The position numbers and the translations under genes are program-made. From positions 10,954 through 74,953 of the forward strand of contig JAFQVV010000015.1 of assembly GCA_017407835.1 (NCBI GenBank): a stretch of 64,000 nt of DNA. Reading direction: 5' to 3'. This stretch comes from Clostridia bacterium. Its GTDB lineage: Bacteria > Bacillota > Clostridia > Oscillospirales > CAG-272. Within the stretch, counting starts at the first letter, position 1; each line of letters starts with the position of its first letter. The notes below the pieces were generated by a model that saw nothing but the letters and a program-made list of their open reading frames with translations, had not been told where the DNA came from and made no database searches. Of the stretch, positions 3,486-41,351 are shown piece after piece.

Positions 3486-3543
3486 GGTAGTACCTCCTGC
3501 CAATGGATTTGTTCCATTCTATGGCAGAGGACAAGGGTTTATG

Positions 3544-4531: not shown

Positions 4532-4564
4532 TATACAATATCCTACCGATGGGAGAAGATCCTA

Positions 4565-5416: not shown

Positions 5417-5424
5417 AACTATCC

Positions 5425-6834: not shown

Positions 6835-6840
6835 TAAAGA

Positions 6841-6884
6841 AAACGGGGTGCCGTGCAAATCGCGCGGCATCCCGTTTGTTTGTG
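6841..6884. terminator. bidirectional rho-independent terminator (nfnB / lipoprotein convergent)
   Basis: AAACGGGGTGCCG-11 nt loop-CGGCATCCCGTTT forms a 13-bp stem with one G-U pair, followed by a TTTGTTTGT tract. Confidence 0.7.
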
Positions 6885-6896
6885 CTTGTATGAAAT

Positions 6897-7310
6897 TCAT
6901 TGCGCGCACCGCTTGCAGACACGTGATTTTCCCGCAGCCTGCGCCTCAGATTCTACGCCGGAATGCAGATTCTGCGCGTTTTTGAGCGAAGAGCAGGTGG
7001 CGTCGATATGCCAGACTTCTCCGCTGTCGGTCCAATAAACAAGAAATTTGCGCGTGGGCTCGGTGGCCGAGGCAGATGCATCATCTGTGTCGGTTGGCAC
7101 ACTCGTCTCCGTCGAGGGGAGAACAGTGGTGTTTTCAGCCGCAAGCATGGATGCCTGCGCCGATTGGATCATGGCACGGACTTGCTCGGCACTCACCGTC
7201 TCAAGCGCATCGGCAGAATCCTGTTCCGAACAGGCGAAGATTGAGAAAAGAGAAAGGGAAATAAAAAACAGCGAGAGGAATTTTCGCACAGTATTTTTGA
7301 ATGTTTTCAT
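6897..7310 (-). CDS. small lipoprotein with C-terminal Cys/His motif
   Basis: Start ATG 7310 gives MKTFKNTVRKFLSLFFISLSLFSIFAC (lipobox IFAC). The C-terminus is VYWTDSGEVWHIDATCSSL...GKSRVCKRC. The start overlaps the upstream stop (ATGA). Confidence 0.6.
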   Translation of the reverse strand: MKTFKNTVRKFLSLFFISLSLFSIFACSEQDSADALETVSAEQVRAMIQSAQASMLAAENTTVLPSTETSVPTDTDDASASATEPTRKFLVYWTDSGEVWHIDATCSSLKNAQNLHSGVESEAQAAGKSRVCKRCAQ

Positions 7311-8500: not shown

Positions 8501-8534
8501 GCGAATCCTCCAAGTTCTATGTGTTGTTATTCCT

Positions 8535-8563
8535 ATTGTAACATATTTCGACTCAAAAGGCAA
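8535..8563 (-). promoter_or_regulatory. sigma-A type promoter for patB operon
   Basis: The minus strand reads TTGCCT, 17-nt spacer, TGtTACAAT. Confidence 0.45.
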
Positions 8564-8638
8564 GAGGAGAAATGCACCCGGACGAATGACTGTATACATT
8601 GATTTCGCAAAAAAACGCAAAAAAATACGGAATACCTC

Positions 8639-8667
8639 TTGTCAAGTCGAAGAATATATGATATACT
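8639..8667 (+). promoter_or_regulatory. sigma-A type promoter for SAM riboswitch-metK
   Basis: TTGTCA (8639-8644), 17 nt, TATACT (8662-8667). The riboswitch begins about 10 nt downstream. Confidence 0.5.
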
Positions 8668-8676
8668 ATATATAAT

Positions 8677-8802
8677 TCTTATCAAGAGTGGCGGAGGGAC
8701 TGGCCCTGTGAAGCCCGGCAACCTGCAGTCTGCAAGGTGCTAATTCCCGAGAGATGAGACACAGACAGTGTTGCGGTCCCTCGGTGACGAGGGCGTTTTT
8801 TT
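8677..8802 (+). promoter_or_regulatory. SAM-I (S-box) riboswitch with intrinsic terminator
   Basis: TTCTTATCAAGAGTGGCGGAGGGACTGGCCCTGTGAAGCCCGGCAACC...GGTGCTAATTCC matches the S-box core. The terminator CCCTCG-gtga-CGAGGG plus T7 lies at 8778-8802. It sits immediately upstream of metK. Confidence 0.9.
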
Positions 8803-24504: not shown

Positions 24505-26733
24505 ATGGAATTTGTCTATCAACTAATCAATTTTCTTCTTCTTGCAGCACTGATTTGGATCTTTGCGCGCAAGATGATTGTCTCTATTTTTGCCAATCGC
24601 AGTGAACGAATCAATACCGCACTGGATGAAGCAGAACGAATTGAGCAGAGCGATATGCAGCTGCCTCAAATTCCCGATGCTTTCAAGGAGGAAGTCTCTC
24701 CCACGATTCTTGAAGAGGCCCATGAGATCCGTCGTCTGGCAGAAGCAGAGAAGGAAAATATTCGGCAGCAGACTGAGCGTGAAATGTATGGTATGCGCCG
24801 TGAAATGCTGACCGGTGTAAAAGATGTGTTCATTCACAAAATGATCACGCGTGTAACAGAGCTCATCCAAACCGAGCCGTATGCATCTCAGCTTCGTGCC
24901 AAAGAGGCAGAGTTCGCCGAGATGATTATGGAGCGAATGGAGGTTACCCCCGGCGATATGGCCTATCTGCGCCGCTCGGATGTGCTCTATATTACGCTCA
25001 CCTCTGCTTATCCGCTTGCACAGGAAATTGTTGATGAAATCGGTCGCCGAGCAACCGAAATGCTGGAGCAGATCGGCGGAAAGCCTTCCTATTGGGTTAA
25101 GGTTGATCCCGATTTAATTGGCGGTCTGCGTTTCCGCGTGGGTGACACTGTGTATGACTGTACAGTTGCCGATCGTCTTTATTTGCTGCGTCATGAATTG
25201 GAAAAACGGGAAATTCACGGTGATGAAGATGCTGAGCAGATCGTGGCGGATTTGCTCCATGGCATCATGACAATGAAGCATGGCGTCAACGAGTTCCAGC
25301 TCGGTCGTGTCATCAGCGTATCGGATGGTATTTGCTGGCTTGACGGTCTTGCCGATATTATGTACGGTGAGGTGGTTGAGTTTGAGTGCGGAGAGCGTGG
25401 CATGGTGCTGGATATTGAGCCCGATCGCATCGGCTGTGTGATTTACGGTAAATACGAGCATATTGAAAGCGGAAGCCGTGTCAGACGTGTTGGCCGCATT
25501 GCTTCTGTCCCCTGCGGTGATGCACTGCTCGGACGAGTTGTTAACCCCATCGGCCAGGCACTGGACGGAAAGGGGCGTATTTGGACCAAAGAGCGCCGTC
25601 CGATTGAGTGCAAGGCCCCGAGCATTCCCGACCGTTCGGCTGTATTTCGTCCGATGCATACGGGAATCAAGGCGATTGATGCACTGGTGCCCATCGGCCG
25701 CGGTCAGCGAGAGTTGATTATCGGCGACCGCCAGACCGGAAAAACCTCAATTGCAATCGACGCGATTATCAACCAAAAAGGGAAGAATACTGTCTGCCTT
25801 TATGTTGCGATCGGTCAGAAAGATACCACCATTGTCGATATTCGCGAGAAGCTTGCCAAACACGGTGCCATGGAATATACAACAATTGTATGTGCCCCGG
25901 CATCCTCCTCGGCTTCCTTCCAGTATATAGCACCCTTTGCCGGTGCCGCAATGGCAGAGTATTTTATGTACGCGGGCAGAGATGTGCTTATCGTCTATGA
26001 TGATCTTTCCAAGCACGCTGTCGCATATCGCGAGTTATCCCTGCTGCTGCACCGTCCGTCCGGACGAGAAGCTTATCCGGGTGATGTGTTCTATCTCCAT
26101 GCACGCTTGCTTGAGCGTGCAGCACAGCTCTCCGCGGAAAATGGCGGCGGTTCAATCACCGCTCTGCCCATCATTGAGACACAGGCAGGCGATATTTCGG
26201 CATATATTCCCACCAATGTCATCTCAATTACCGACGGACAGATATTCTTGGATGCTGATCTCTTCAATGAGGGACAGCGCCCGGCTGTTAATGTCGGTCT
26301 TTCGGTTTCCCGCGTTGGCAGTGCGGCACAAACAAAGTTGATGAAGCAGGTTTCTTCCCGTCTGCGCATGGAACTTGCACAGTACCGTGAATTGGCAGGC
26401 TTCACGCAATTCGGTTCGGATGTTGACGCGGCAACCAAACGCATTCTCGATGCCGGTGAGCGGATGATGAGTGCTTTGCGCCAGAACCGCTATGAGCCGT
26501 TGCCCGACTGGAAACAGGTTTTGCTGATTTATGCCGTCGCCGAAGGGTATGCTGCGCATATCTCACCTGCTGAGCTGGATCGCTTTGCCGAAGAACTGTA
26601 TGTGTATTTTGAAACGGCACAGCCGGATACGGTGGAAATGCTGCGCCGTGGGCAAAAGATGTCTGATCAAGACAAAGCATGCCTTAATGCGGCACTTTCG
26701 GCCTTTGGGGCATCGATGGGTGAGGTGTCCTGA
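24505..26733 (+). CDS. atpA: ATP synthase alpha subunit fused in one ORF to N-terminal b-like and delta(OSCP)-like modules
   Basis: The ORF is a single 742-aa frame. Residues 1-30 form a TM helix, followed by a charged coiled coil (b-like). Residues about 160-230, LTSAYPLAQEIVDEI...DPDLIGGLRFRVGDTVYDCTVADRL, match the delta C-terminal pattern. From about residue 240 onward a full alpha subunit follows (VISVSDGICWLDGL, GDRQTGKTSIAIDAI, ITDGQIFL). No separate atpH gene is present in the operon. Confidence 0.85.
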   Translation: MEFVYQLINFLLLAALIWIFARKMIVSIFANRSERINTALDEAERIEQSDMQLPQIPDAFKEEVSPTILEEAHEIRRLAEAEKENIRQQTEREMYGMRREMLTGVKDVFIHKMITRVTELIQTEPYASQLRAKEAEFAEMIMERMEVTPGDMAYLRRSDVLYITLTSAYPLAQEIVDEIGRRATEMLEQIGGKPSYWVKVDPDLIGGLRFRVGDTVYDCTVADRLYLLRHELEKREIHGDEDAEQIVADLLHGIMTMKHGVNEFQLGRVISVSDGICWLDGLADIMYGEVVEFECGERGMVLDIEPDRIGCVIYGKYEHIESGSRVRRVGRIASVPCGDALLGRVVNPIGQALDGKGRIWTKERRPIECKAPSIPDRSAVFRPMHTGIKAIDALVPIGRGQRELIIGDRQTGKTSIAIDAIINQKGKNTVCLYVAIGQKDTTIVDIREKLAKHGAMEYTTIVCAPASSSASFQYIAPFAGAAMAEYFMYAGRDVLIVYDDLSKHAVAYRELSLLLHRPSGREAYPGDVFYLHARLLERAAQLSAENGGGSITALPIIETQAGDISAYIPTNVISITDGQIFLDADLFNEGQRPAVNVGLSVSRVGSAAQTKLMKQVSSRLRMELAQYRELAGFTQFGSDVDAATKRILDAGERMMSALRQNRYEPLPDWKQVLLIYAVAEGYAAHISPAELDRFAEELYVYFETAQPDTVEMLRRGQKMSDQDKACLNAALSAFGASMGEVS

Positions 26734-27566
26734 TGCCAAGCCTTCGTGACTTGAAAAAACATTTGCGCAGCATCGAGATGACGGGACAGCTGGCTGGGGC
26801 GATGAAAACAGTATCTGCTGCAAAATATTCGCGAATTAACAATATTCTGCAGAACTACGCCGATTATGCCGCTGTATGTGAACGGATTTCCCGACATTTT
26901 GGAAGCGCTTTGACCGAAGCTTACCCGTGTGTCAATCCAAACGCCCCCCGCGGGATCGTTGTGTTGGGCTCGAATCGAGGATTGTGCGGCGGCTATAATA
27001 TTGAACTCCTCAATTTTGCCGATGCATGCTTAGCGGATTCTGCGTCTTCTTGCGAGTTGATCGTTGCCGGAAAAACAGCGATTGCACATTTCCGTGATAA
27101 TGCTGTTCCCATCAAGCAGGAATTTTTGCTTCCCGATGTGGTGCAGTACAGCGATTGCCTGCCGCTGTTGGACTATGTGCTGGATCTCTATCGTGCAGGA
27201 GAGATATCCACAATTGAAATAATTAACCAGAAGTTTATCAATATGTTGACGCAATCGCCGATATTGACACAGCTTCTGCCATGGAAGGCGCCCGATGATC
27301 AAACGCCGGAAAAAGAGATTCTTTACCTGCCCGATCGCGGGACGGCTCTGCGCTCAGCCGCTGAGACTTGCATCAACGCCGGTGTTTATATGCGTATTTT
27401 GGAGTCGAGTGCAGGTGCACAGGCCGCGACATTGATGGCAATGCGTTCAGCCTTTGATAATGCGGAAAAGTCGTCAAATGAATTGCAGGCGGCCATCAGC
27501 CGAAAACGACAAAGCGATGTGACCGCAAGCGTGATTGAAACGGCCGGCGGTTATTTCGAGACATAA
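26733..27566 (+). CDS. atpG: F0F1 ATP synthase subunit gamma
   Basis: MPSLRDLKKHLRSIEMTGQLAGAMKTVSAAKYSR at the N-terminus and the C-terminal ...RQSDVTASVIE are gamma signatures. TGATG overlap with the alpha ORF. Confidence 0.9.
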   Translation: MPSLRDLKKHLRSIEMTGQLAGAMKTVSAAKYSRINNILQNYADYAAVCERISRHFGSALTEAYPCVNPNAPRGIVVLGSNRGLCGGYNIELLNFADACLADSASSCELIVAGKTAIAHFRDNAVPIKQEFLLPDVVQYSDCLPLLDYVLDLYRAGEISTIEIINQKFINMLTQSPILTQLLPWKAPDDQTPEKEILYLPDRGTALRSAAETCINAGVYMRILESSAGAQAATLMAMRSAFDNAEKSSNELQAAISRKRQSDVTASVIETAGGYFET

Positions 27567-29344: not shown

Positions 29345-29373
29345 TCGATGATAGATGAACATAATTAAATTTC

Positions 29374-29414
29374 AAAAGAGGTTGTCGCGCGATTAAGCGC
29401 GACAACCTCTTTTG
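29374..29414. terminator. bidirectional terminator (atpC / ABC ATPase convergent)
   Basis: AAAAGAGGTTGTCGCGC-gattaa-GCGCGACAACCTCTTTT is a perfect 14-bp GC-rich stem with A and T runs. Confidence 0.85.
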
Positions 29415-29430: not shown

Positions 29431-30309
29431 TTACTGTGTATCTGTATTTCCAAACACATAGAGATAATAATCTTCTAATGTGGGTGAGACGATTTTGGCT
29501 TGATGGGTTGGGGGCGTATCTGCCAGAACGCGAAGCAGGATTTCTCCCGTGTTTGCGTTTCTTGTGATATTCGTTACGCGAAATTGATCCTGCATTGTTT
29601 GCACTTCGGAGTCGGTGCACGGTACAAGCCAGACCTGACCGTTAATTTTTTCGGTCAGTATTTTTGGGGGCGCGTGATCCACAATGACACCTTTTTTGAG
29701 TAAGATAATCTCTTTGGCAATAAACTCAATGTCGGAGACGACATGTGTGGCAATTAACACAATCTTGTTGAATGCAATTTGGGAGATGTAGTTGCGGATG
29801 GCGATGCGTTGTTTGGGATCAAGGCCTGCGGTGGGCTCATCGAGAATAAGGACCTGCGGATCGCCCAATACCGCCTGCGCTAATGTTAAACGCTGTTTCA
29901 TGCCGCCCGATAAGGCACTGATCTTTCGTTTGATCACATCATCCAATTCTACCGCGGAAAGAATATCGGGAATTTGTTGTACTGCTTCGGCTTTCGATAG
30001 CCCCTTGAGCGCCGCCATGTACCACATGAAACGTTCGACCGTAAAGTTTGGATATAATCCGGGATATTGCGGCATAAAGCCAAGTTTTTCCCGAAAACGT
30101 GTACCCATATCAAGGATATTCTCGTTGTCACACAGAATTTCACCCGAATCGGCTTTGAGGTTGTCGGTAAGAATATTCATCAGGGTCGATTTGCCCGAGC
30201 CGTTTGGTCCGAGCAGGGCGTAGATGCCCGCGTCGAGAGTAGCCGTGAAGCCGTTGAGTGCGAGGTTTGTGCCATAGGATTTGGAGATGTTTTGGATGGA
30301 TAGTGTCAC
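29431..30309 (-). CDS. ABC transporter ATP-binding protein (ABC-2/DrrA-like, single NBD)
   Basis: GTG start 30309 follows AAGGAGGT. LLGPNGSGKSTL is Walker A, LSGGMKQRL the signature motif and LILDEPTAGLD Walker B. It is the last gene of the minus-strand operon. Confidence 0.9.
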   Translation of the reverse strand: MTLSIQNISKSYGTNLALNGFTATLDAGIYALLGPNGSGKSTLMNILTDNLKADSGEILCDNENILDMGTRFREKLGFMPQYPGLYPNFTVERFMWYMAALKGLSKAEAVQQIPDILSAVELDDVIKRKISALSGGMKQRLTLAQAVLGDPQVLILDEPTAGLDPKQRIAIRNYISQIAFNKIVLIATHVVSDIEFIAKEIILLKKGVIVDHAPPKILTEKINGQVWLVPCTDSEVQTMQDQFRVTNITRNANTGEILLRVLADTPPTHQAKIVSPTLEDYYLYVFGNTDTQ

Positions 30310-30321
30310 TCTGATACCTCC

Positions 30322-31653
30322 TTAAGGTTCTGGTTGAATCATACGAATTTCGCCGAAAACATAGCTGTTTGAATTGACGCCGTTTGCGGCAAGATGCTCG
30401 CGGATGCGCTCCCCGTCAACCACGTTGCCCGAAACGATCAGATGTGCGTCTTGCATACCGATGATGCTTTGCCCATCAAAGCCAGGCGTGAAAATCTCGC
30501 GCAGCTCACCGCTGTCAAGATCAAGCGCAATCAGCGTTGATCCGCTGTCGGACACGATGTAATCCACCTGAATATGCTTGCCAAGCGAATCGACCACCGC
30601 ATCACCGGTTTCGCCCGTCATCGTTGCGGCAATCGCCTCAACAAACACCGGCTTATATGGGATAATGAACAACGTACCGTTAACAAGATACATCGGGGTA
30701 AATGCGCTGGTCGGCGTGTTAACACCATCATAAAGCAATTCCGGTTCAGCATCCAAAGCGGTAAGATTGATACGATAACACGCATGGAGCTGTTTTTCTG
30801 CGCGGACAGTGGCTTTACCGTCGGAAGACTGATTTTTGTCCTGCGGATGAGCATCAACTATCAGCGCTCCCGCGCGGTTTTCGCTTTTCTGTGTATAGTA
30901 CAGCCATCCATCATGAAGAAAACTGCCATACAGTGCAACGCCCTGCATCACTTTTTCTGTTGTCTGAAAATCTGCTGTGGAAGCATAAAGACAGGCATCC
31001 TCATAGCTGACCCAATATGCAGTTCTCTCCCCGTCCGTATCGGTTATACCGATGATATTGACCACATCATACGCTCCCTCGGTCAGCATACGCAGATTTT
31101 TTCCATCGGCATCCATGACGTAGAGATTGCTTCCGAGCCCGACGGCATTTCCGGTTTCATCGTAGGTAGTGCACTGAATGACCAGATAGATATCGTTTGC
31201 GAACAGCCAGAACCGATTGATCATCTCGGCATGCTCCACCAGGACTGTGCGGATGCCCTTTTTCATATCCAGCCGATACAGGCGGGAGATCTGCTTCTTC
31301 GTCTCAAGGTCGATCACGCGGTCGGTATAGTATACAATCGGTGTGCTGTCTTTGTCCGAAACAACGGCGATCTCCGGCTGAAGCCACAGATACGCCGGAC
31401 ATTCCGTGGAATCGTGAGCACAGAGCGGATCATAGCAGACGAGATTTTCTGTGCCGTCCGGGGCGGTATAGGCAAGCAGACCATCTGTGTTTTTATAATA
31501 GCGATAACCATTGTGCATAAATTGGCTGGCAGAAGCTGTGTAAGCATACTCGTTTTCCGCTGTGCATCCGACGAGCAGCAGAAGTACGGCAATTATGATT
31601 AAAACAAAATTTATGCCGTAGGATTTGGATATGTTTTGGATGGATAATGTCAT
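30322..31653 (-). CDS. lipoprotein paralog 4 (DPLC-motif family); N-terminus is a copy of the ABC ATPase N-terminus
   Basis: ATG 31653 follows AAGAGGA with a 6-nt spacer. MTLSIQNISKSYG (identical to ATPase residues 1-13) is followed by INFVLIIIAVLLLLVGC (lipobox LVGC). The motif is CYDPLCAHDSTEC. The ORF track start 31737 has no SD. Confidence 0.6.
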   Translation of the reverse strand: MTLSIQNISKSYGINFVLIIIAVLLLLVGCTAENEYAYTASASQFMHNGYRYYKNTDGLLAYTAPDGTENLVCYDPLCAHDSTECPAYLWLQPEIAVVSDKDSTPIVYYTDRVIDLETKKQISRLYRLDMKKGIRTVLVEHAEMINRFWLFANDIYLVIQCTTYDETGNAVGLGSNLYVMDADGKNLRMLTEGAYDVVNIIGITDTDGERTAYWVSYEDACLYASTADFQTTEKVMQGVALYGSFLHDGWLYYTQKSENRAGALIVDAHPQDKNQSSDGKATVRAEKQLHACYRINLTALDAEPELLYDGVNTPTSAFTPMYLVNGTLFIIPYKPVFVEAIAATMTGETGDAVVDSLGKHIQVDYIVSDSGSTLIALDLDSGELREIFTPGFDGQSIIGMQDAHLIVSGNVVDGERIREHLAANGVNSNSYVFGEIRMIQPEP

Positions 31654-31751
31654 GGTGTGTCCTCTTAGCGTAATTTTTCGCCAAACTGCATTTAGATGTG
31701 CGGAGAGCAACTGCTGTTTTTCGGAATTACTTATCATGTTTTCCTGATGAT

Positions 31752-33050
31752 TTATCCGAATTCATAGAGCGTGTATTCTCCCGTTTCCATATCATAGGCA
31801 GAAAATGCCGTATTGCTAAGGTATAGAATCCATTTGTCGCAGACCAGAATCCAGCGAGCGCCGGTAATTGGATTGGAAGCCTCCTGCTCCGGCGTTTGTA
31901 CCAGACGGAGTGGATTGCCGTCATGATCGCATTGCCAGAGACCGTCGCTAAAATTCAAATAGAGATAATGATCGGTAATACTCCCCCACATCAACGGATA
32001 TGCGCTTACCGTTTCCGGCACCTCTCCGAGCATTTCTTCTTCGCCCGTGAGGAGATTTCGCTTCGTATAATATAATCGATATAAAGCGGTAGTAATCGGA
32101 TTTCCGTTTTCATCTGTCAGAGGTTCTCCACGTCCATCCACTTCTTCCATCAACTTTACCGGTTCTCCGGAAGGCTTTTGGTAATAGCAGTAATCACCTG
32201 CCCGTGCGGTATTGATGTAATAATAGGGGAAATGAAGAAGCGCCGACTCGCCGCTGTTCCGATCGACACGCGTTACGCGATTGCTCTCTCCGATTCCCGT
32301 GTGAAAATAATAATACTGCTCGTCAATATCCTGAAGATTGCTGAACCCGTCCTCCGTCTGCTCAAACGTATAGAGGATTTCCTCCGTTTTCCCGAAGGAA
32401 TCGGGCTTCGTCCGGCAGAGAAGCCTGATCTTTTCACCGGTAGGATTGTCCGCGTATACCGGTCGGAAAACGCTGTAATAGAGATATCCGTCCGAAAGGA
32501 TCTTGTGAAGGGTATACTGCGAGCCGTCATCCGGGATGTCATAGAGCTTCTTTATGCTTTGAGATGCTATATTATAGCACAGAAATGAATAATCACGGAT
32601 TTCCGTTCTGCCGGAAATATCTCTTCTCCATTCGGTTGTTCCGGTGATAAAGTATACTTTATCATCATCAACCAACCATTGATCTGAGCCATTTGCAAAA
32701 ACACATTCTTCTCCGGTACACAGCGGATCGGTACAGACGCTGTTAAGGCTTCCGGTCATGGGATTGAATCGGTAAAAATTTCCGGTTTCTCCCGATGGCC
32801 AGAAATAAATCATATTGTCAAACAGTCTGATACAGGAATTGTTCGGTGTGAAGACATGGTCAAACCCGTCTATAGTCTCACTTAGAATATCCTCCGAAGA
32901 ATCCGGTATTGTATGCCCACCACTGCAGGAAGAGAAAAGAAGCAATATAAGAAAAATGGCTGCGATTAACTTACCTCCATTTCTCTTGCCTGCGTTGAGG
33001 GCGAGGTTTGTGCCGTAGGATTTGGTGATTCGATTGATTGTTATTTTCAA
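31752..33050 (-). CDS. lipoprotein paralog 3 (DPLC-motif family); N-terminus carries an ABC ATPase-derived segment
   Basis: TTG start 33050 follows AAGGAGGA with a 5-nt spacer and overlaps the upstream stop (TTGA). MKITINRITKSYGTNLALNA (ATPase-like) is followed by GKRNGGKLIAAIFLILLLFSSC (lipobox FSSC). The motif is CTDPLCTGEEC. Confidence 0.6.
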   Translation of the reverse strand: MKITINRITKSYGTNLALNAGKRNGGKLIAAIFLILLLFSSCSGGHTIPDSSEDILSETIDGFDHVFTPNNSCIRLFDNMIYFWPSGETGNFYRFNPMTGSLNSVCTDPLCTGEECVFANGSDQWLVDDDKVYFITGTTEWRRDISGRTEIRDYSFLCYNIASQSIKKLYDIPDDGSQYTLHKILSDGYLYYSVFRPVYADNPTGEKIRLLCRTKPDSFGKTEEILYTFEQTEDGFSNLQDIDEQYYYFHTGIGESNRVTRVDRNSGESALLHFPYYYINTARAGDYCYYQKPSGEPVKLMEEVDGRGEPLTDENGNPITTALYRLYYTKRNLLTGEEEMLGEVPETVSAYPLMWGSITDHYLYLNFSDGLWQCDHDGNPLRLVQTPEQEASNPITGARWILVCDKWILYLSNTAFSAYDMETGEYTLYEFG

Positions 33051-34291
33051 GAGTATCCTCCTTGTTCATCCATCCGATGCAGCATCATGATGCCATTTTC
33101 GATGCAGGCGCGGCAATGATATGTCGAAGTTTCCCCCGCATATTCGGTTTTACCATTGGTGATCTCAACCCATAATCCCGATGCCGCAGCGCAGCGGATC
33201 GTCACCGTGTCCTCCGGCTGAACGTCGCCGGCAAGCGTGTATCGAGTCACGGTGCCATCGGCGGGCTTGATACAGCAGACGGACAGCGTTGCATTGACAT
33301 AAAAGTCAATAGGATCGGTTTCCCCGTTTGGACCGCCTGTTGGCATTTCCCGGCTGCCAAGATAACGCTTTTCAGACTCGGTAAACCAGATTCCCCCGCC
33401 GAAAGTGAACCCATTCACACTTTCGCCTACCTTTTTCCATTTCCCGTTGTGATACACATACAGATACCATCGCTTATCGGTATAGACGTGCATTCCACCA
33501 TTTTCGCTTGGACATTCGGCAGAAAATTCAGCCACAGAACGTAAATAGGTTTTTTCGCCATATATTGTAATGTCATACAAACGACCTTCGACATCACCTG
33601 CCGCATCCACCTCTGCAACACCGCTTTTTCGGTCGATAATATCCATCAGGAGATCGCCGTTCACGTTCGGATAAAGCAGATAGTAACGGGCATCATCTGC
33701 ATAAAAAGAACTGCTGATATCGAGTTCGTCTTCCAATACTTTCTCGGCCTTTCCGCCGTTTGTCGCGATTCGCATGACATAAGCAGATTGTTCGCTGATG
33801 CCGAGGTGATTGTCTGAGAAATTTTCCTGCCCACTGTAAAAGCCCTGTTCAAAGTAAAGAAAGCCATCCGCATACTGCATATAGAGGGAGGTGTTGGTCG
33901 AGAAATCATAGGTGTGCAGGAGAGTGAAGTCTGAGCCATCGGGTTTCATGGAAAAAATCTGCCGATACACAGTGCCGTTTTCATCGGTGAGGGCGGGATT
34001 GGTGGCATTCATATAAAGCCGTTCCCCATCGGTAACCAGCGTCTTCATCCAAAGCTGCCGGGAGGAGGGGCAGAGGCTGTCCTCGCTGTCATGGGTGCAG
34101 AGAGGGTCACGGCAAATATCGTCGTACGTCGCGTCCCAATTCGGATTCCATACCTGCAGGTGGAGATTTTCGTAATATGTTTCTCCCAGCAGACAGCCCT
34201 CACGGGTGTTACAGTAGTCTTGCATCGGGGGTTTACCGCAACTGCACAGGAGCAGAAGAGCGGCAAGGGTTATGCAGAGCAGGTTTTTCAT
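33047..34291 (-). CDS. lipoprotein paralog 2 (DPLC-motif family)
   Basis: I prefer ATG 34291 (MKNLLCITLAALLLLCSCGKPP) over the track start 34303. The motif is CRDPLCTHDSEDSLC. Confidence 0.6.
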   Translation of the reverse strand: MKNLLCITLAALLLLCSCGKPPMQDYCNTREGCLLGETYYENLHLQVWNPNWDATYDDICRDPLCTHDSEDSLCPSSRQLWMKTLVTDGERLYMNATNPALTDENGTVYRQIFSMKPDGSDFTLLHTYDFSTNTSLYMQYADGFLYFEQGFYSGQENFSDNHLGISEQSAYVMRIATNGGKAEKVLEDELDISSSFYADDARYYLLYPNVNGDLLMDIIDRKSGVAEVDAAGDVEGRLYDITIYGEKTYLRSVAEFSAECPSENGGMHVYTDKRWYLYVYHNGKWKKVGESVNGFTFGGGIWFTESEKRYLGSREMPTGGPNGETDPIDFYVNATLSVCCIKPADGTVTRYTLAGDVQPEDTVTIRCAAASGLWVEITNGKTEYAGETSTYHCRACIENGIMMLHRMDEQGGYS

Positions 34292-35656: not shown

Positions 35657-38188
35657 TCACTTCACAAACATCCGCTTCGCGGGCATCATTATTGCCGACA
35701 CCGCCGCGATTGCCACCGCCATCCACAGCGTGAGCATCGCATAGCCGTTGCCAAACAACGCCATCTCAGCCGACTGCAAGAACAGCGGCGTACCTGCCAG
35801 CAGGTTGAGGAAATTGACTTGCTCCGCCGCCGCAAGTCCGAAATAGGCACACAGTGCGGGCAGGAGCGTGAGAATCACAGCCGTGCCGAGGACGGGAATA
35901 TACCGTGCCAACAGCTCCGACAGCGCACAGACGAGCATCGCCATCAGCAAAGCCCCTACCGTACGCATGATAAAGAAGACCGCGAAATATTGCCCTATTG
36001 TAATGTCGCCGGATACATCTGCGAACATTTGCATTGATACCAGAGGGGCATTCATGGCAGGCAGGTCGTAGCCCATGACAATGATTGCGGTATCCACAGC
36101 ACCGGTGAGAAGAGCCAGAATGATCGCGATCATACCGGAGGAGATGAGCTTTGCGTAGAAGGTCTTGTGCCGTCCGTTTTTGGTGGAGCGGAGAAGCTGC
36201 GCAAAACTGCCGGAAGAGGATTTTGAAGCATATTCTGCCGCAAACGATCCGGTTAAGAGAAGTAAAATAGCCGCGTAGAGGAAGAGATCCGCATCTTCTG
36301 CGTACATCTTCTGCCAGCCCGAATCATAGACGAACCAACCACGCACACCGGTCTCGGATTCCTTTTGCTTTAGATATTCTGCGTGGTTTTCGATAACGGT
36401 TAGCAGCTTTGCCCGGGAGTAGGCATAGTTGAAGTCGGAAAGATATGCGCAATATTCATCGAAGGAAATTTCTTGGTTTTCGTATGCTTGCTGCATGATG
36501 CTTTGCTTGGCGATTGCTTCATCAATGCGCTTGCGTTCTTGGGCGAGGTAAGCTGATTTTTCTTCGGTCAGCGGTCCCTCCAGAGTGGTCATGTATTCCT
36601 TATATACTGCATCGGCATAAGAGTTTGATGGCGTGTTGGTGTCGTAGGAATACCATGTCTTCACGCAGAGAATGAGTAAAACGATGACCAGAAAGCGGGA
36701 GGAGATAAGTGTTTTGAAAATTTCAGCCAGAACCAATGCGCGGCTATAGGTGCGCATTTTGCGGCTTCTCCTGCGATTCGGAACAGAAATTTTATGATGA
36801 TGAAATTTGGCAATATTTATCATGCACCATGCGAGGGCAGTATCGATCCACCCAAGACGGAGACAAATCTTTCCTTTGCAGTAGAGAAAGATGGTAACCA
36901 TTGCACACACTACAATCAGCAGTGAAAATACGGTCAGCATGACGGGTAAAAATCCGGCAACGGTACCAAAGAGATTCATAGCGCGATACCGCACAAATAT
37001 CGGATTTCCTACCGCCCCGGTCATAAGGTTGAGATTTTTGAGGACATTGTTGCCGTCGATATAGGATATTATATAAAGTAAGAAATTGAGTCCAAACATG
37101 CCAAGACCGGAGAGATAAATGAGGATATAGTTGTAGAACAGCACCGACAGGGTGAGCACAATCATGGAAAACACCGCGAACGTCAGCAATTTTATGCCGA
37201 TGTTGGTGAGAAAATACTGGCCGATGGTAATTTGATAGGGGGAGAGTGTGAAGGTATTCAGCGCTTGAATCACGTTATGCGGAGAGGAAAATCCGATCCG
37301 CAAACCGTATACGGCAAATGTGGATAGAGTGAACATCAGCACGAAGATAGAGGAGAGCAAGAGCATGGTGAGTATTTTTGCCGTTGCCGTTCTGAGTCGC
37401 CCATTTTTTGCCGTGCGCATGATGGGCAGAAATCCACTTTGCTTTTCCTGCGCAAAAATCAAGCTGCCCAGCATAATGAGCATCATAAAGATAAAGATGT
37501 TCACTGTGTCGTAAGCGAAATATTCATCCCAACCCCGAGTGTATTCCACTTCAATTTCCACAGCATCTCGCATCTGTTCATATAATTCAATCACACGAAG
37601 TTGATAGCGATAGGTAAACGAATCTTCGGTAATATTCATATCGGCAAAAGCATCTAAATTGTCGCGCGCGCGTGTAATTACCCGCTCAAGCAAAGCAGGA
37701 TATTCCCGTGCCGCTTCAACATTGCTGTAAAGCTTGGCAAATAACAATTGGTCCGGATAAGCTTCATCGGTCGAATAAAGATTGGGCATCACCTGCGGCA
37801 AAAAATCATCATTTCCGTCTCGCATGGCTTGACGATGCAGTGTTTCCTGCTCGGCATTGAATGCCTGCATCTCGGCATAGTATGCATCCAATTCGGTCGA
37901 ATTTGCAGTGTATTCGGCAAAGAAAGCAGAGATCATTTGGGTGGGCTCTTTGGCCGCTTCCGTTTGATCGGCGGTATACCATGCAATGGCAGTGTTGAGC
38001 ATCAAAAGGAGAAAGAAGAATACCCACAAATATTTCACACCGAGAAGTTTTTTTATCTCATAGCCGACAAATTGTCGATTTTTTTGTTTTTGTGAGCATG
38101 TCCTCACCGCATCCGATTCATTGAGCAAACTTAACCAGTGCTCATCCACATAGCCGATGCCTTCAAATAATTTTTCAGCATTCTTCAT
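35657..38188 (-). CDS. 843-aa membrane protein: short cytoplasmic N-terminus plus two tandem ABC-2-type permease modules, each preceded by a large helical extracytoplasmic region
   Basis: ATGA overlap with the sigma gene stop. TM1 lies at about residues 58-80. FAQEKQSGFLPIMRTAKNGRLRT and AAEYASKSSSGSFAQLLRSTKNGRHKT are two copies of the ABC-2 permease E-x-x-x-G-(T/S)...R motif, each followed by about 5 TM helices. Confidence 0.65.
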   Translation of the reverse strand: MKNAEKLFEGIGYVDEHWLSLLNESDAVRTCSQKQKNRQFVGYEIKKLLGVKYLWVFFFLLLMLNTAIAWYTADQTEAAKEPTQMISAFFAEYTANSTELDAYYAEMQAFNAEQETLHRQAMRDGNDDFLPQVMPNLYSTDEAYPDQLLFAKLYSNVEAAREYPALLERVITRARDNLDAFADMNITEDSFTYRYQLRVIELYEQMRDAVEIEVEYTRGWDEYFAYDTVNIFIFMMLIMLGSLIFAQEKQSGFLPIMRTAKNGRLRTATAKILTMLLLSSIFVLMFTLSTFAVYGLRIGFSSPHNVIQALNTFTLSPYQITIGQYFLTNIGIKLLTFAVFSMIVLTLSVLFYNYILIYLSGLGMFGLNFLLYIISYIDGNNVLKNLNLMTGAVGNPIFVRYRAMNLFGTVAGFLPVMLTVFSLLIVVCAMVTIFLYCKGKICLRLGWIDTALAWCMINIAKFHHHKISVPNRRRSRKMRTYSRALVLAEIFKTLISSRFLVIVLLILCVKTWYSYDTNTPSNSYADAVYKEYMTTLEGPLTEEKSAYLAQERKRIDEAIAKQSIMQQAYENQEISFDEYCAYLSDFNYAYSRAKLLTVIENHAEYLKQKESETGVRGWFVYDSGWQKMYAEDADLFLYAAILLLLTGSFAAEYASKSSSGSFAQLLRSTKNGRHKTFYAKLISSGMIAIILALLTGAVDTAIIVMGYDLPAMNAPLVSMQMFADVSGDITIGQYFAVFFIMRTVGALLMAMLVCALSELLARYIPVLGTAVILTLLPALCAYFGLAAAEQVNFLNLLAGTPLFLQSAEMALFGNGYAMLTLWMAVAIAAVSAIMMPAKRMFVK

Positions 38189-38721
38189 AGCGGTATTCCC
38201 TCCTTTTCCAGATGATTTTTTAATTGTTTTCGTAATTTTGCCAGGATTTTGGAAATTTGATTTTGTCTCATGCCGAGTTTTGCTGCGATTTCTTTCACCG
38301 GTTCGGAACAGAAATAGCGTCGGATAAAGATGATACTTTCCCGCTTCGGAAGCATCTCCAGAAAAGAATCAATCGCATGTCCGATGTCCTGTGGCGTCAT
38401 ATCCGTTATGTCTTCACTGATGCACTCGTTTAATTCCACCAAAACAGCAGAGCGTTTCTGCCGATTCTTCGCTTTGATTGTGTTGAGAGCAAAATTACGG
38501 CAAATGCGCAGAGCATATGCCCCAAGAAAATTCGGATTCTCGGGCGGAATAGAATTCCAGACAGCCAAACAGGTGTCATTGAAACACTCCTCGGCATCTG
38601 ATGCGTTTCCTGTAATTTCTTTTGCCGCACAGAGACACAGGCGTTTGTAGGCTCGTTCAAATTCGGTTATGGCGCGTTCATCACGCCGCCAAAACAAGGT
38701 GATAATTTGCACATCTTCCAT
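38185..38721 (-). CDS. RNA polymerase sigma-70 family, ECF-type sigma factor
   Basis: 178 aa. The region 2 pattern (FERAYKRLCLCAAKEITGNASDAEECFNDTCLAVWNSI, LGAYALRICRNFALN) and the region 4 HTH (RESIIFIRRYFCSEPVKEIAAKLGMRQNQISKILAKLRKQL) are present. AAAGGAGGG SD. Confidence 0.85.
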   Translation of the reverse strand: MEDVQIITLFWRRDERAITEFERAYKRLCLCAAKEITGNASDAEECFNDTCLAVWNSIPPENPNFLGAYALRICRNFALNTIKAKNRQKRSAVLVELNECISEDITDMTPQDIGHAIDSFLEMLPKRESIIFIRRYFCSEPVKEIAAKLGMRQNQISKILAKLRKQLKNHLEKEGIPL

Positions 38722-39077: not shown

Positions 39078-41351
39078 ATGCAGCTCTTTTTCAGACGTCC
39101 GCTGTGTTTGTTGTGTACATTTGCTGTTTTGGCCATGCTTGGCGGGTATTTTCTTTCTTTTTCCTGCTTTTGGTGGCTCTGTCTGCTTTTCTTGTTTATG
39201 TGCATCGTGACTGTCGGAGGAATCTATACCAAGCGAATTGCGTTTTTTACCGGTTGTATGCTGGTCGCATCCATGTTGGCGATTGTATTGGGATTTTGCG
39301 TATCCGCAAGCTTTTTTCAATTGAAGCTTGTCGAATTGGAGAAAAAGCACGGAGAGACGCATATTGTCGAGGGGCAGCTTATCCGCCGTGAATGGGGAGG
39401 CAGTTATTACTCGGGTTATCTTATGCATTTGTATACGGTGGACGGCGAGAAAATATCGGCGGATGTTTTGCTTTCGTGTGAATATCCCGCAGCTTGGCGC
39501 GTAGGCGAGGTTGTATGCATATCGGTGGAATGTCAGGCGTTCGAGCAGGAAAGTGATGGATTTGCCGAACGGCGGTATTATTTATCCAAAGGCATCTTGA
39601 TGCGATTGTCCTCGGAAGATTCAAGTGATGTTTTATCCGTCAAGGAAGGAAAGCACTCACTTCGGATTTCGGCAGAACGCTTTAATCTTTTGCTCAGCGC
39701 ACGAATTGAGCAGGCAGTTGGAGACGAAGGCACAAGTTCACTGCTGTCAGCACTTTTTCTTGGACGTCGGGATGATCTTGATGATGCCGTTATTCGGGAT
39801 TTTCGTCGTCTCGGACTGTCTCATCTGCTTGCGTTGAGTGGATTGCATCTGACATTTCTTGTTCGGATTGTGGATTGGATGTTAGGCAAATTTTTGCGAA
39901 AATCAGCATTTCGATCATTGCTTATCTTGGTCGTGATCGGCGGATATACACTTCTCGCAGGAGCGCCCATCTCGGTGGTGCGCGCAGGGATTATGTTAGC
40001 AATCGCAGAGTTGTTTTCTCTGCTGTGGGATGAAAGTGACGGACAAACCGCGCTTTTCCTCGCCGTTTCGTTGATTTGTCTCTGCAATCCGCCGTCATTG
40101 CTCGATCTTGGGCTTTGGATGTCGGCATTTTCTACCTTGGCATTGATTTTGTTTGAGCGCATACAGCCATGGAATCGATGTGATCGCTTGATTCGCATTC
40201 CGCTTGAGACGGTGAGTGTTACGTTGGGCGCAACATTTGCAACACTCCCATTTGTTTGGCTGAGCGGCGGGGAACTTTCGCTTTTGGCAATTCCCGCGAA
40301 TTTGATTTTTGTTCCCCTTGTCTCTGTACTGCTTGCTTGTGCACCCGTTTGCATTGTATTGGGTGAGCTTGGAGAGTTGATTTGTCGACCGATGGTTTGG
40401 CTTGCGCAAGGTGTACTTTGGCTTGCGGAGAAATTTTCAGACGGGCGGGGAATTACGGTTTCCCTGCAATATGAATTTTTGCCTATCGTTTTATTGCCGG
40501 TCATCATTTTCATCTTGGTCGTTCTGTTGATCAGGATACGGCGGAAATGGATATTCGTCATTCCCGTGTGTTTGTTGATTGTTTCATTGCCGATCGGCGT
40601 GTTGTATGCGCAAAACGATTCGGCTGTTGATTTGATTTATGATGTCGATGGAAAGAACGAAACTATTGCCCTGCAGAGCAGCAGAGGGGCTTTGATTTGC
40701 GATTTGACCGATGGCTCGTATTCCGCACTTTATTCTGCGGCAAATCACATAAAAAGCCTGGGCGAAACAGAGGTAGAGGTGTTAATGCTGACGCACTATC
40801 ATACCGGACATATTGGGGCGGTTTTTCGTTTCTGCAATAAGGTAAAAGTCAGACAGTTGTGGCTTCCATATCCCAATACCGAACGAGAGTGGGAAATTCT
40901 GCTTGACCTTACCGAGAATGCAGAACTGCAAAACATCACGGTTTCACTGTATCACGAAGGGGAGGAGATTTATTTCGGCAACGCGGAAATTATTCCGTAT
41001 ACGCGGGAATTGCTGACGCGCTCATCTCAGCCGTTGCTTTTGCTGCAGATCAAAACAGGTGAGCGGGCGTTGACATATATCGGTGGGTCTGTACAGGAAG
41101 GCACACTTGGGGCGACGGCAGATGAATTTATAGCAGAAAGTCAAATTGTGATCTTCGGCGATCACGGACCGAATCGAAAAAAGGTATTTGCATGGGAATC
41201 TGCCCCCAACCTTGAAACGATGGTTTTTTCCACGCATGATTGTCTGTCTTGGGTAGACGTCGGCAATGTGTATGTGGCCCGGGCGATGATGGATAGTGCC
41301 GTCAGTATTGCGGAAGGGTGGACAAACGAACCTGTTTTTCGGCTTGAATGA
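39078..41351 (+). CDS. comEC: DNA internalization-related competence protein ComEC/Rec2
   Basis: 757 aa. The N-terminal TM/OB region, the polytopic competence domain (GLSHLLALSGLHLTFL) and the C-terminal metallo-beta-lactamase motif (MLTHYHTGHIGA) are present. SD is GGGAGGTGG. Confidence 0.85.
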   Translation: MQLFFRRPLCLLCTFAVLAMLGGYFLSFSCFWWLCLLFLFMCIVTVGGIYTKRIAFFTGCMLVASMLAIVLGFCVSASFFQLKLVELEKKHGETHIVEGQLIRREWGGSYYSGYLMHLYTVDGEKISADVLLSCEYPAAWRVGEVVCISVECQAFEQESDGFAERRYYLSKGILMRLSSEDSSDVLSVKEGKHSLRISAERFNLLLSARIEQAVGDEGTSSLLSALFLGRRDDLDDAVIRDFRRLGLSHLLALSGLHLTFLVRIVDWMLGKFLRKSAFRSLLILVVIGGYTLLAGAPISVVRAGIMLAIAELFSLLWDESDGQTALFLAVSLICLCNPPSLLDLGLWMSAFSTLALILFERIQPWNRCDRLIRIPLETVSVTLGATFATLPFVWLSGGELSLLAIPANLIFVPLVSVLLACAPVCIVLGELGELICRPMVWLAQGVLWLAEKFSDGRGITVSLQYEFLPIVLLPVIIFILVVLLIRIRRKWIFVIPVCLLIVSLPIGVLYAQNDSAVDLIYDVDGKNETIALQSSRGALICDLTDGSYSALYSAANHIKSLGETEVEVLMLTHYHTGHIGAVFRFCNKVKVRQLWLPYPNTEREWEILLDLTENAELQNITVSLYHEGEEIYFGNAEIIPYTRELLTRSSQPLLLLQIKTGERALTYIGGSVQEGTLGATADEFIAESQIVIFGDHGPNRKKVFAWESAPNLETMVFSTHDCLSWVDVGNVYVARAMMDSAVSIAEGWTNEPVFRLE

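Follow-up and report, generated by a model that had tools for sequence, protein, structure and literature searches.

Arrays of orphan cassettes, in one account (PMC5361080), are built up by displacement beside a conserved anchor gene, with homology-facilitated illegitimate recombination as the suggested mechanism; the examples given there are Rhs C-terminal displacement, the orphan cdiA-CT/cdiI modules of CDI and the effector-immunity arrays of the Vibrio cholerae T6SS. The locus described here, an operon of ABC transporter and lipoprotein genes in a window of 64,000 nucleotides (the whole stretch of DNA analysed, from a gut Clostridia bacterium, contig JAFQVV010000015.1), resembles these arrays in that divergent cassettes stand in a row beside a conserved gene, pieces of which remain attached to them, cassette content and order vary between species and strains, and orthologous cassettes are found in other genomic contexts. 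Unlike them, the operon is not a toxin-immunity system, its anchor, an ABC ATPase gene, stands downstream and leaves its 5' end behind, and the attached piece (the stub) appears to have been recruited as the ribosome-binding site, start and signal-peptide N-terminus of a gene instead of lying as a silent orphan. For the cassettes of the window no donor was found, and for the mechanism suggested below these arrays serve as an analogue from the literature.

Join points of tandem duplications give fusion genes in bacteria, as is known from work on duplication and amplification in Salmonella and E. coli. The window shares with them a 5' end of one gene standing in frame with the body of another and a duplicated 5' segment, but the expected second lipoprotein copy is missing and the lipoprotein bodies long predate the fusions. 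In the variable lipoprotein multigene families vsp, vlp and vsa of Mycoplasma the 5' ends are conserved, and here, too, tandem lipoprotein genes are more similar at their 5' ends than in their mature parts (66 identical nt between g8 and g9 of the related locus L084); however, neither the flanks nor the operon itself holds a site-specific recombinase, the shared 5' sequence comes from an unrelated ATPase gene, and a single operon contains all the genes, with no expression-site logic. Long N-terminal extensions of signal peptides are also known, as in the autotransporter ESPR and the YSIRK-type peptides, and like them the chimeric proteins carry an extension (10–27 aa) before a normal hydrophobic region and cleavage site, but this extension appears to be an accidental ATPase fragment, which has no conserved motif and decays in the related species L169.

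Organization of the operon

All features of the locus lie on the minus strand, in the order ECF sigma factor, 843-aa permease, L1, L2, L3*, L4* and ABC ATPase. The first gene encodes an ECF-type sigma-70 factor (38185–38721; Pfam Sigma70_r2 and r4_2; NCBIfam TIGR02937, 1.8e-22), and its stop is overlapped by the start of the gene for an 843-aa polytopic membrane protein (35657–38188), a putative ABC-2-type permease with a weak match to ABC2_membrane_3 (E 0.004, below the Pfam cut-off). Its orthologues in L084 and L086 occupy the same position and are 57–62% identical; judged from position alone, the protein could possibly have an anti-sigma N-terminus. L1 (34326–35624; MKKLFAILLIALIFLSSC; orthologue L086_g3, 73%) and L2 (33047–34291; orthologues L086_g10, 47%, L084_g5, 46%, and L010, 45%) are lipoproteins with ordinary signal peptides. 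They are followed by the chimeric lipoprotein genes L3* (31752–33050, 432 aa), whose TTG start is overlapped by the TGA stop of L2, and L4* (30322–31653, 443 aa), the two separated by a 98-nt spacer (31654–31751). The last gene encodes the 292-aa ATPase, with a GTG start (29431–30309; MTLSIQNISKSYGTNLALNGF; Pfam ABC_tran, 4.6e-32), and an intrinsic terminator with an 18-bp stem (29373–29414) closes the operon. The ATPase scores 192 bits against the GldA model and 163 bits against the DrrA model, both below the cut-offs, in likeness to the ATPases of ABC-2-type exporters, and L4, which has a weak DUF5050 match (E 8e-5, below the cut-off) and an all-beta structure model with six-bladed propellers among its matches, may resemble the DUF5050 and LRP1-like beta-propellers. 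Unlike the members of these groups, the lipoproteins and the permease reach the threshold of no curated family.

The 5' ends of L3* and L4* are copied from the ATPase gene

L3* and L4* are chimeric genes whose N-termini have been copied from the 5' end of the ATPase gene, as the initial annotation had claimed. The L4* protein begins with MTLSIQNISKSYGIN and continues with FVLIIIAVLLLLVGC; its stub (31609–31653) corresponds to ATPase codons 1–15, with 39/45 identical nt (39/43 in a local alignment), and L4* codons 16–23 match neither parent. The L3* protein, from its TTG start, runs through MKITINRITKSYGTNLALNA, the linker GKRNGGK and LIAAIFLILLLFSSC, and its stub (32991–33050) corresponds to ATPase codons 1–20 (30250–30309 in the ATPase gene), with 34 identical nt of 39 over codons 8–20, not 35 as first counted, and 34/37 in a local alignment. 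The breakpoints differ, as had been annotated, and that of L3* does lie at codon 20, but that of L4* is at codon 15 rather than 13. The L3* linker (32970–32990), aligned on the lipobox Cys with the L3 orthologues L086_g11 and L169, contains GGAGG; it probably once served L3 as 5' UTR and ribosome-binding site and is translated today.

With at most two mismatches, a 19-nt core occurs three times in the window and in none of 100 shuffles. When about 165 ATPase-bearing loci were each searched with the 5' end of the locus's own ATPase, with the reversed query as the null, the window copies scored 35 and 33 and the null never exceeded 16. An assembly artefact is ruled out by the point differences of both stubs from the ATPase, by four independent assemblies that carry the same arrangement, and by a 3839-nt Logan contig that spans it with 0 mismatches. 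The L4* stub and the window ATPase share derived states (TCC at codon 4, ATC at codon 5) that the outgroup ATPases lack. The L3* stub is a mosaic, with 0/30 differences from the ATPase type in codons 10–19 versus ~10/27 in codons 1–9, and this pattern makes plausible some gene conversion with the ATPase start, which had been among the explanations offered for the similarity.

Translation from the copied segments

Each chimeric start has a Shine-Dalgarno sequence of its own, in agreement with the initial annotation: AAGGAGGA (33056–33063), 5 nt from the TTG of L3*, and AAGAGGA (31660–31666), 6 nt from the ATG of L4*, in a region that resembles the ATPase upstream region of L001. In neither gene is there an in-frame ATG, GTG or TTG between the stub start and the hydrophobic region, or a usable in-frame start between the stub and the lipobox, and therefore translation must start in the stubs, not downstream of them. 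From its stub L4* takes the start codon, the charged N-terminal portion of its signal peptide (K10) and the onset of the hydrophobic part, and it conforms to the Gram-positive lipoprotein pattern. In L3* the charged N-terminal region (net charge +6, and +7 in the L169 protein) runs to 27 aa and the lipobox Cys comes at position 42, beyond the usual limits of rule-based lipoprotein signal-peptide prediction. The chimeric signal peptides may still permit export.

The lipoprotein bodies are older than the fusions

The lipoprotein bodies are of ancient origin. L1–L4 are old paralogues with a mutual identity of 19–28%, and their orthologues in sister species (43–73% identical) have ordinary MKK-type N-termini and stand in shuffled orders, implying that the fusions arose long after the paralogues had split. 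Orthologues of L3 and L4 with ordinary signal peptides are present in L086, L084 and L001; the L3 orthologue L086_g11 (73% identical) starts with MKKLLGIIITLLLLSSC, and the L4 orthologues start with MKYPLLSLLLITLLLLSGC (P0002, 67%), MKKILLAAILLIGALLGLTSC (P0003, 52%) and MKKNILICIALICISILFSSC (L001, 43%). No donor of L4 was found, the best match being the one at 67% identity. The order in L086 is L1, L4, five other genes, L2, L3 and ATPase, versus L1, L2, L3*, L4* and ATPase in the window, and L2 and L3 are adjacent there with neither a stub nor an ATPase between them.

The two fusions are independent events of different relative age, which bears out the claim of at least two events first made from the breakpoints. 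The L3* junction is common to the same-species haplotype L167, in which the stub is identical, and to the 81%-identical orthologue L169, and L3* is older than L4* because the latter is absent from L167. Comparison of L169 with the window gives 35% aa and 55% nt identity for the stub versus 84% and 85% for the mature part; among orthologues, no part of the L3* gene evolves faster than the stub, which in L169 decays almost neutrally. The initial annotation had considered the scars far better conserved than the bodies, a view that came from comparing ancient paralogues and does not hold between these orthologues. Very rapid divergence of the mature lipoproteins, one reason it had offered, is at odds with a pN/pS of 0.4–0.6 between strains, and selection on the initiation region, another, finds no family-wide constraint at the nucleotide level, as in 122 members of the family ATPase codons 9–20 show no excess of synonymous conservation.

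L4* is an accessory cassette

L4* is present in some strains only. L167 and L168 have the order permease, L1, L2, L3*, 67 nt, ATPase, with L4 absent; in run X9, L1–L3 and the ATPase have a depth of 6–7 and L4 a depth of 0, with a contig that joins the L3* stop to the ATPase, and in run X12 the same 30 nt follow the L3 stop and L4 has no depth. Of the two features that the initial annotation had singled out for comparison across strains, copy number varies (L4* is missing in L167, L168 and X9) and the L3* junction is the same in L167 and L169. The ATPase of L086 and L167 begins right after L3, at the place where the window has the L4* stub, and the 67-nt spacer before the L167 ATPase is homologous to part of that before the L4* stub (18/24 nt, shuffle p = 0.008). 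Upstream of the L4* stub lies the old L3–ATPase spacer, which matches the present ATPase upstream region at ~10/15 nt, versus 39/45 in the coding part. Up to the L3 stop, L167 agrees with the window at 99.1% identity, and its ATPase has 2/819 differences after codon 20 but 15/60 in codons 1–20, the right-hand end of a strain-variable patch. This patch, the spacer and ATPase codons 1–20, differs in the L4-less haplotype by ~25% from both window copies, with flanks differing by ≤1%, so that at least one further replacement of the patch must be assumed; the L4-less haplotype is not a simple "before" state of the L4* event.

Origin of the fusions

Taken as a whole, the locus is probably best explained by old, diverged lipoprotein genes and two young, lineage-specific fusions to a duplicated ATPase 5' end. 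L3 and L4, as old beta-propeller lipoprotein genes, would have lost their own ribosome-binding site and start, and the copied ATPase Shine-Dalgarno sequence, start codon and first 15–20 codons would now serve as the translation start and the N-terminal part of the signal peptide. In each of two separate lineage-specific rearrangements, the L3* event first and the L4* event later, a lipoprotein cassette would have come to lie immediately upstream of the conserved ATPase, with duplication of the 5' end of that gene; the old start of the ATPase, now displaced, would have remained in place, fused in frame to the incoming cassette. Joins in frame, with ribosome-binding site, start codon, hydrophobic region and lipobox all retained, would be the survivors, and only these would be seen because only such joins yield an exported product. 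As to mechanism, we tentatively suggest ATPase-anchored recombination, one-sided homologous and illegitimate ("sequential displacement"), possibly with DNA from related strains. Given the L2–L3 adjacency in the stub-free L086, the L3* event looks as if an ATPase 5' fragment had been inserted between L2 and L3, or as if L086 had lost a stub, and neither alternative follows directly from the placement of a cassette.

It is also conceivable, though unlikely, that an ancestor with the order L2, ATPase, L3, ATPase, L4, ATPase arose by whole-module duplication or fusion of tandem operons, and that the redundant ATPase bodies were then deleted from codon 15–20 into the next lipoprotein start, leaving in-frame stubs. 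Relatives offer the parts for such a history: an ATPase directly followed by a lipoprotein gene is common (L001, L002, L046, L049, L070, L084, L086), two ATPases lie ~6.4 kb from each other in the tandem modules of L049, L052, L070, L071, L077 and L079, L2 orthologues (L009, L010) and an L4 orthologue (L001) sit directly upstream of an ATPase, L002 has an unfused, internally deleted ATPase (codons 1–54 plus a 3' tail), and L037 has an unfused 14-codon ATPase stub where the ATPase of a module should be. However, the proposed intermediate of this array is seen in no relative, each fusion would need two steps, L086 has no ATPase between L2 and L3, and the divergent patch of L167 is explained no better.

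The initial annotation had read the stubs as tandem-duplication scars, with L3 and L4 made in situ as new paralogues by unequal crossover between a signal-peptide region and the ATPase 5' end, and the stubs, as duplication junctions, kept alike by gene conversion or selection. Such end points would give exactly this type of chimera, the chimeric genes are those closest to the ATPase in L084 as well as in the window, other members of the family have recent tandem lipoprotein duplicates (85% identical in L015, 72% in L020 and L099), and the mosaic L3* stub fits a conversion tract. The stubs are indeed recombination scars, but that they mark the joins of the duplications from which the paralogues arose is very improbable, and this origin is largely refuted: the orthologues with ordinary N-termini place the divergence of the genes before the fusions, the array holds no second L3 or L4 copy or other close paralogue (≤28% identity), the sequence upstream of the L4* stub was not copied from that upstream of the present ATPase, and between orthologues the stubs evolve faster than the bodies. 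That the repeated segment is a selected functional element, a shared RNA site of translation or regulation or else a site at which recombination would bring programmed gain and loss of cassettes, is hardly credible despite the weakly folded initiation regions at all three starts (MFE -3.7, -8.7 and -8.5 vs an operon mean of -12.7), the presence or absence of L4* between strains and the shared 5' ends of L084 g8 and g9, as ATPase codons 9–20 lack excess synonymous conservation, the stub decays freely in L169, no Rfam family matches, no recombinase gene is near the locus, the longest perfect repeats are 14–16 nt, and the L4-less haplotype, given its different spacer, is not the product of a repeat-mediated deletion.

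Fusions in related species

In L084, the three genes adjoining the ATPase (g8, g9 and g10) each carry a short ATPase-like stub and a Shine-Dalgarno sequence before their native MRK start; their orthologues have no stub, and g8 and g9, identical at their 5' ends, have unrelated bodies. The unfused ATPase stubs of L002 and L037 are further instances of a copied ATPase 5' end. The same kind of fusion recurs in other species, and the fusions of L084 arose independently.

Two lipoprotein genes start with copies of the ATPase 5' end

The operon lies on the minus strand and consists of an ECF sigma factor gene in first position (38721-38185), a gene for an 843-aa membrane protein that is weakly ABC-2-like (38188-35657), the four lipoprotein genes L1 (35624-34326), L2 (34291-33047), L3 (33050-31752, with a TTG start) and L4 (31653-30322), and, as the last gene, the ABC ATPase (30309-29431), after which a strong terminator (29414-29373, minus strand) closes the operon. 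ComEC-like, pyruvate:ferredoxin oxidoreductase and ATP synthase genes flank it. The ComEC/Rec2-type competence protein (757 aa; PF03772, 1.4e-44) is encoded divergently from the operon at 39078-41351 on the plus strand, and only shows that DNA-uptake machinery may exist in the organism. On the identical contig L080, one gene called within the ATP synthase operon (742 aa), corresponding to about 24505-26735 (plus strand) of the window and lying directly upstream of the gamma-subunit gene (26733-27566), matches ATP-synt_B, OSCP (delta) and three alpha-subunit domains; this predicted product would be an unusual b/delta-alpha fusion. An Rfam search of the operon returned no RNA family, only noise at the terminator, and the initiation regions fold weakly, like most gene starts, which decides nothing.

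The ATPase starts with MTLSIQNISKSYGTNLALNGF. L4 starts with MTLSIQNISKSYGIN, followed by FVLIIIAVLLLLVGC, and L3 with MKITINRITKSYGTNLALNA, followed by GKRNGGK and then LIAAIFLILLLFSSC. In local alignments, 39/43 nt of L4 and 34/37 nt of L3 match the ATPase 5' end (39/45 nt over codons 1-15 and 34/39 nt over codons 8-20, respectively), and a 19-nt core of these copies, which we call stubs, occurs three times in the window compared with none in 100 shuffles. When about 165 ATPase-bearing loci were scanned with the 5' end of their own ATPase, the window copies scored 35 and 33, whereas the reversed-query null reached at most 16. The similarity between the stubs and the ATPase is far beyond chance. 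An assembly artefact was ruled out by the presence of the arrangement in four independent assemblies and in a mismatch-free 3839-nt contig. The alignments, null scans and independent assemblies together confirm the claim of the initial annotation that two lipoprotein genes carry copied ATPase 5' ends.

The stubs end at codon 15 (L4) and codon 20 (L3), ahead of Walker A (residues 34-41). Walker A, the ABC signature and Walker B are absent from the stubs, the ABC_tran match is confined to the 29431-30309 gene, and the stubs are thus fragments of the ATPase, not ATPases. An extension of the L4 stub to codon 19 through assumed C-to-T changes was dropped (10/24 matches, not significant). The ATPase 5' end and the stubs form direct, imperfect repeats of 37-45 nt. 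Upstream of the start codon the L4 stub and the ATPase copies share about 10/15 nt, compared with 39/45 in the coding part, and farther upstream L3 and a spacer precede one copy and the 3' end of L4 the other. The L4 junction falls within the signal-peptide region. That of L3 lies ~15 nt upstream of the old L3 start, so that the GKRNGGK linker, which contains GGAGG, is probably the old L3 5' UTR, now read through.

Compared with the ATPase, the L3 stub is a mosaic, in which codons 1-9 differ at about 10/27 positions and codons 10-19 at 0/30. Such a pattern would be accounted for by conversion with an ATPase copy or by a second stub overlapping the first. Family-wide nucleotide constraint on ATPase codons 9-20 was rejected, as the excess codon homozygosity among 122 homologues amounts to 0.07, the mean over the gene being 0.06; this ordinary synonymous conservation does not explain the mosaic. 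Some gene conversion with the ATPase start, one of the processes offered in the initial annotation, is plausible; selection on the nucleotides lacks family-wide support.

The lipoprotein bodies are older than the stubs

L1-L4 are only 19-28% identical to each other, and their orthologues are found in related loci: L086_g3 for L1 (73%), L086_g10, L084_g5 and L010 for L2 (47%, 46% and 45%), L086_g11 for L3 (73%), and L084_g4 (P0002), L086_g4 (P0003) and L001 for L4 (67%, 52% and 43%). All the sister-species orthologues carry ordinary N-termini (MKKLLGIIITLLLLSSC for L3; MKYPLLSLLLITLLLLSGC, MKKILLAAILLIGALLGLTSC and MKKNILICIALICISILFSSC for L4), implying that the split of L3 and L4 predates these species and that the stubs were added later. 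The codon states agree with a late addition of the L4 stub, which shares with the window ATPase the derived codons TCC (4) and ATC (5), missing from the L001, L084 and L086 ATPases, and still has the ancestral ATG and TAC at codons that have become GTG and TAT in the window ATPase.

The bodies share a C-x-DP-L-C motif, which may be a disulfide or metal knot. Near the N-terminus, this motif is invariant in all the array lipoproteins, in most cases with H-D and another Cys after it; in L4 it spans residues 73-85 (about 31399-31437) and falls in a low-confidence part of the structure model. The bodies resemble beta-propellers: L4 matches DUF5050 weakly, and its model, of only moderate quality (pLDDT 61), is all-beta at low confidence and matches six-bladed propellers, a beta-propeller-like fold being all that the model supports.

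A member of the L3 protein cluster led to the JGI contigs L169 and L170, L169 being from a related species. Their L3 orthologue, at 81% identity, shares the junction of the window gene (codon 20 GCA, then a 7-codon linker, no indels), indicating that the L3 fusion predates the split of the window species and L169. The L169 stub now reads MTLSLWNRARSYSTSPARNADKKNRRK. Between the window and L169, the stub is 35% identical in amino acids and 55% in nucleotides, the linker 43% and 62%, the hydrophobic region with the lipobox 80% and 89%, and the mature part 84% and 85%, the lowest 20-codon stretch of the mature part having 65% nucleotide identity. A nucleotide identity of 55% in the stub against 85% in the mature part means that little constraint acts on the stub sequence. 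The impression that the scars are better conserved than the bodies was an artefact of comparing ancient paralogues; when orthologues are compared, no part of the gene evolves faster than the stub. The stubs differ in age and can be compared as stages, with that of L4 fresh, that of the window L3 mosaic, and that of L169 decayed, yet open and positively charged.

L4 is a cassette that varies between strains

In the public sequencing runs X1-X8, 56-99% of the sampled words of the locus were present, and in X1, X5 and X10, which were mapped to the locus, L4 is present. In X9, the depth is 6-7 over L1-L3 and the ATPase and 0 over L4, and a contig connects the L3 stop (31752) with ATPase codon 9 (30285), with 91 other letters in between. 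In X12 the L3 stop is followed by the same 30 letters, and depth over L4 is nil; X11 and X13 show no L4 depth either, but at low coverage. A joint of 30250 and 31610 in X11 was rejected as a structural variant because it reflects an ATPase from another species that cross-maps to the L4 stub.

The same haplotype is assembled in two contigs, L167 (7416 nt) and L168, which contain the permease, L1, L2, the chimeric L3, 67 nt and the ATPase (MILTIQSISKSYGTNLALDDFT). L167 is 99.1% identical to the window over 4849 nt ending exactly at the L3 stop. L4 is thus a cassette that varies between strains 99% identical in its flanks, being absent from L167, L168 and X9. The comparison across strains that the initial annotation had proposed bears out two events of different breakpoint.

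The L167 and window ATPases differ at 15/60 positions in codons 1-20 and at 2/819 from codon 21 on. The boundary of this patch (window 30250-30309, L167 5291-5350), codon 20, coincides with the L3 breakpoint. The patch has diverged too far for one haplotype to descend directly from the other, and at least one further replacement of the patch, by recombination with more distant DNA, must be assumed. The L167 spacer between L3 and the ATPase is largely unlike that of the window, and a repeat-mediated deletion as the source of the L4-less haplotype is ruled out because its spacer differs. The 98-nt spacer before the L4 stub is partly homologous to the L167 ATPase spacer (18/24 nt, shuffle p = 0.008), so that the L4 stub occupies the position of the ATPase start in L167 and L086.

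The stubs as putative signal-peptide N-termini

Translation from a start downstream of the stubs, the alternative raised in the initial annotation, has no candidate: L3 and L4 contain no in-frame alternative start between the beginning of the stub and the hydrophobic region, so translation of the two genes, if any, has to begin in the stubs. Upstream of L4, an in-frame ATG at 31737 (to 31654) would add 28 residues (MISNSEKQQ...), and one ENA assembly calls L4 from it (471 aa, P0008). Since it is preceded only by a weak AGGA, the ATG at 31653 is taken as the L4 start.

Lipoproteins were recognized by a lipobox, [LVI][ASTVI][GAS]C, after an uncharged hydrophobic region of 7-22 residues, and by an N-terminal region with the Cys at positions 15-35 and K/R near the N-terminus. 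L3 (LIAAIFLILLLFSS-C) and L4 (SYGINFVLIIIAVLLLLVG-C) both have the lipobox and hydrophobic region, as well as the PROSITE-type core pattern. With its Cys at 30 and first K at 10, L4 fits the Gram-positive G+LPP pattern and misses the rule requiring K/R within the first 7 residues. L3, with its Cys at 42 and a charged N-terminal region of 27 aa (net +6), misses both rule sets by length alone. The L3 stubs stay open and positively charged (net +6 in the window, +7 in L169), and an open, charge-gaining stub would fit translation as the N-terminal part of a signal peptide. Between strains, pN/pS is 0.4-0.6 and the reading frames of L3 and L4 are intact, which argues that the chimeric genes are in use. 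For annotation, such N-termini have the look of ATPase fragments or of wrongly called starts and do not pass the standard rules for lipoproteins.

Recurrence in related arrays

In the related loci L084 and L085, the three lipoprotein genes closest to the ATPase (g8, g9 and g10) start with MTLT(T/I)T(N/D)(N/I)RRG, after which comes the native MRK start, and their 5' nucleotides, including the Shine-Dalgarno sequence, match the start of their own ATPase with scores of 22, 21 and 17 (null maximum 16). No such extension is present on the orthologues of these genes in L086 and L169. At their 5' ends (L084 15221-15290 and 16417-16486), g8 and g9 have 66 identical nt in common, comprising the stub and the first half of the signal peptide, and the mature parts belong to different families, with L086_g7 and L086_g6 as the best orthologues; this points to possible 5'-end conversion or recombination junctions within the signal-peptide coding region.

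A strict motif scan of the first 79 related loci had found no ATPase N-terminus on lipoproteins, its criteria being too strict; L084 and L037 came to light only in a nucleotide scan judged against a null distribution. A metagenome scan with the ATPase as the query gave no relative closer than 76%, the informative relatives having been reached through a protein search with L4 and through members of protein clusters, and a search for an L4 donor gave none above 67% identity.

Genes of the same lipoprotein families stand in shuffled order when the window, L084, L086 and L169 are compared, and paralogues within an array are only 20-30% identical. Recent tandem lipoprotein duplicates are found in relatives (85% identical in L015, 72% in L020 and L099), which shows that whole-gene tandem duplication occurs in the operon family, though not in the window array. 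In L015, four tandem paralogues, 52-85% identical, occupy 3319-8700.

Origin of the fusions

The comparisons show two independent in-frame fusions, in which the ATPase Shine-Dalgarno sequence, start and first 15-20 codons were placed on pre-existing lipoprotein genes. The explanation that we prefer, though with less than even confidence, is an ATPase-anchored insertion, or sequential displacement. A segment spanning a lipoprotein gene into the ATPase would recombine homologously within the resident ATPase, its other end would be joined illegitimately to the resident gene a few codons past the start, and the incoming cassette would be left with the resident ATPase start as its stub. Such an insertion matches the sharp right-hand boundary at ATPase codon 20, which is compatible with a crossover in the ATPase anchor, the conserved stub position, the strain polymorphism, and the L001 orthologue of L4 directly upstream of an ATPase. 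Judged by its spacer, the L4-less haplotype does not exactly represent the state before an insertion.

A collapse by deletion of interleaved ATPase-lipoprotein modules is unlikely. ATPase remnants in two related loci resemble its intermediates: in L002 (about 2365-2650) the middle of the ATPase is deleted, so that codons 1-54 run out of frame into the last ~20 codons, and L037 (5378-5421) has a free 14-codon ATPase stub, then a stop, directly behind a permease, where the ATPase of a tandem module should start. Neither remnant is fused to a lipoprotein gene.

A simple tandem duplication creating the L3 and L4 paralogues is excluded by the old bodies with ordinary orthologues and by the shuffled order. 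The window contains no second L3 or L4 (best identity within the array 25-28%), and the same upstream sequence on both duplicated 5' ends, expected of a tandem-duplication junction, was not found. The unequal crossover proposed in the initial annotation thus falls together with the conserved scars, while its two separate events stand. A phase-variable family driven by site-specific recombination was dismissed, as the flanks examined contain no recombinase gene and the repeats are direct and imperfect.

Anchored insertion parallels the published models for Rhs, CDI and T6SS arrays (PMC5361080). Shared with these orphan arrays are a conserved anchor beside variable cassettes with anchor fragments retained, here on L3 and L4 of the window, L084 g8-g10 and L169 L3, and as free stubs in L002 and L037, as well as cassettes whose presence varies between close strains and whose orthologues lie in other contexts. 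Fusion and displacement scars in cassette arrays are an event type already known. It is possible, if somewhat doubtful, that the arrays diversify generally by repeated, horizontally fed cassette displacement at the ATPase start, with the displaced starts reused as ribosome-binding site, start codon and signal-peptide N-terminus, which would mirror the orphan arrays, but in a non-toxin system. If so, a cytoplasmic ATPase sequence has repeatedly been made into working export signals.

The fusions document repeated recruitment of a cytoplasmic ATPase fragment as the putative N-terminus of export signals in an uncharacterised operon family of gut Clostridia. They offer a clean natural case in which a signal peptide would gain a new N-terminus and start from a fragment of an unrelated cytoplasmic protein, with stages that can be compared. 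Sigma-factor- and ABC-linked lipoprotein arrays turn over by cassette exchange, even between strains of 99% identity, which points to variable selection on the surface lipoproteins of these uncultured ruminant-gut Clostridia.
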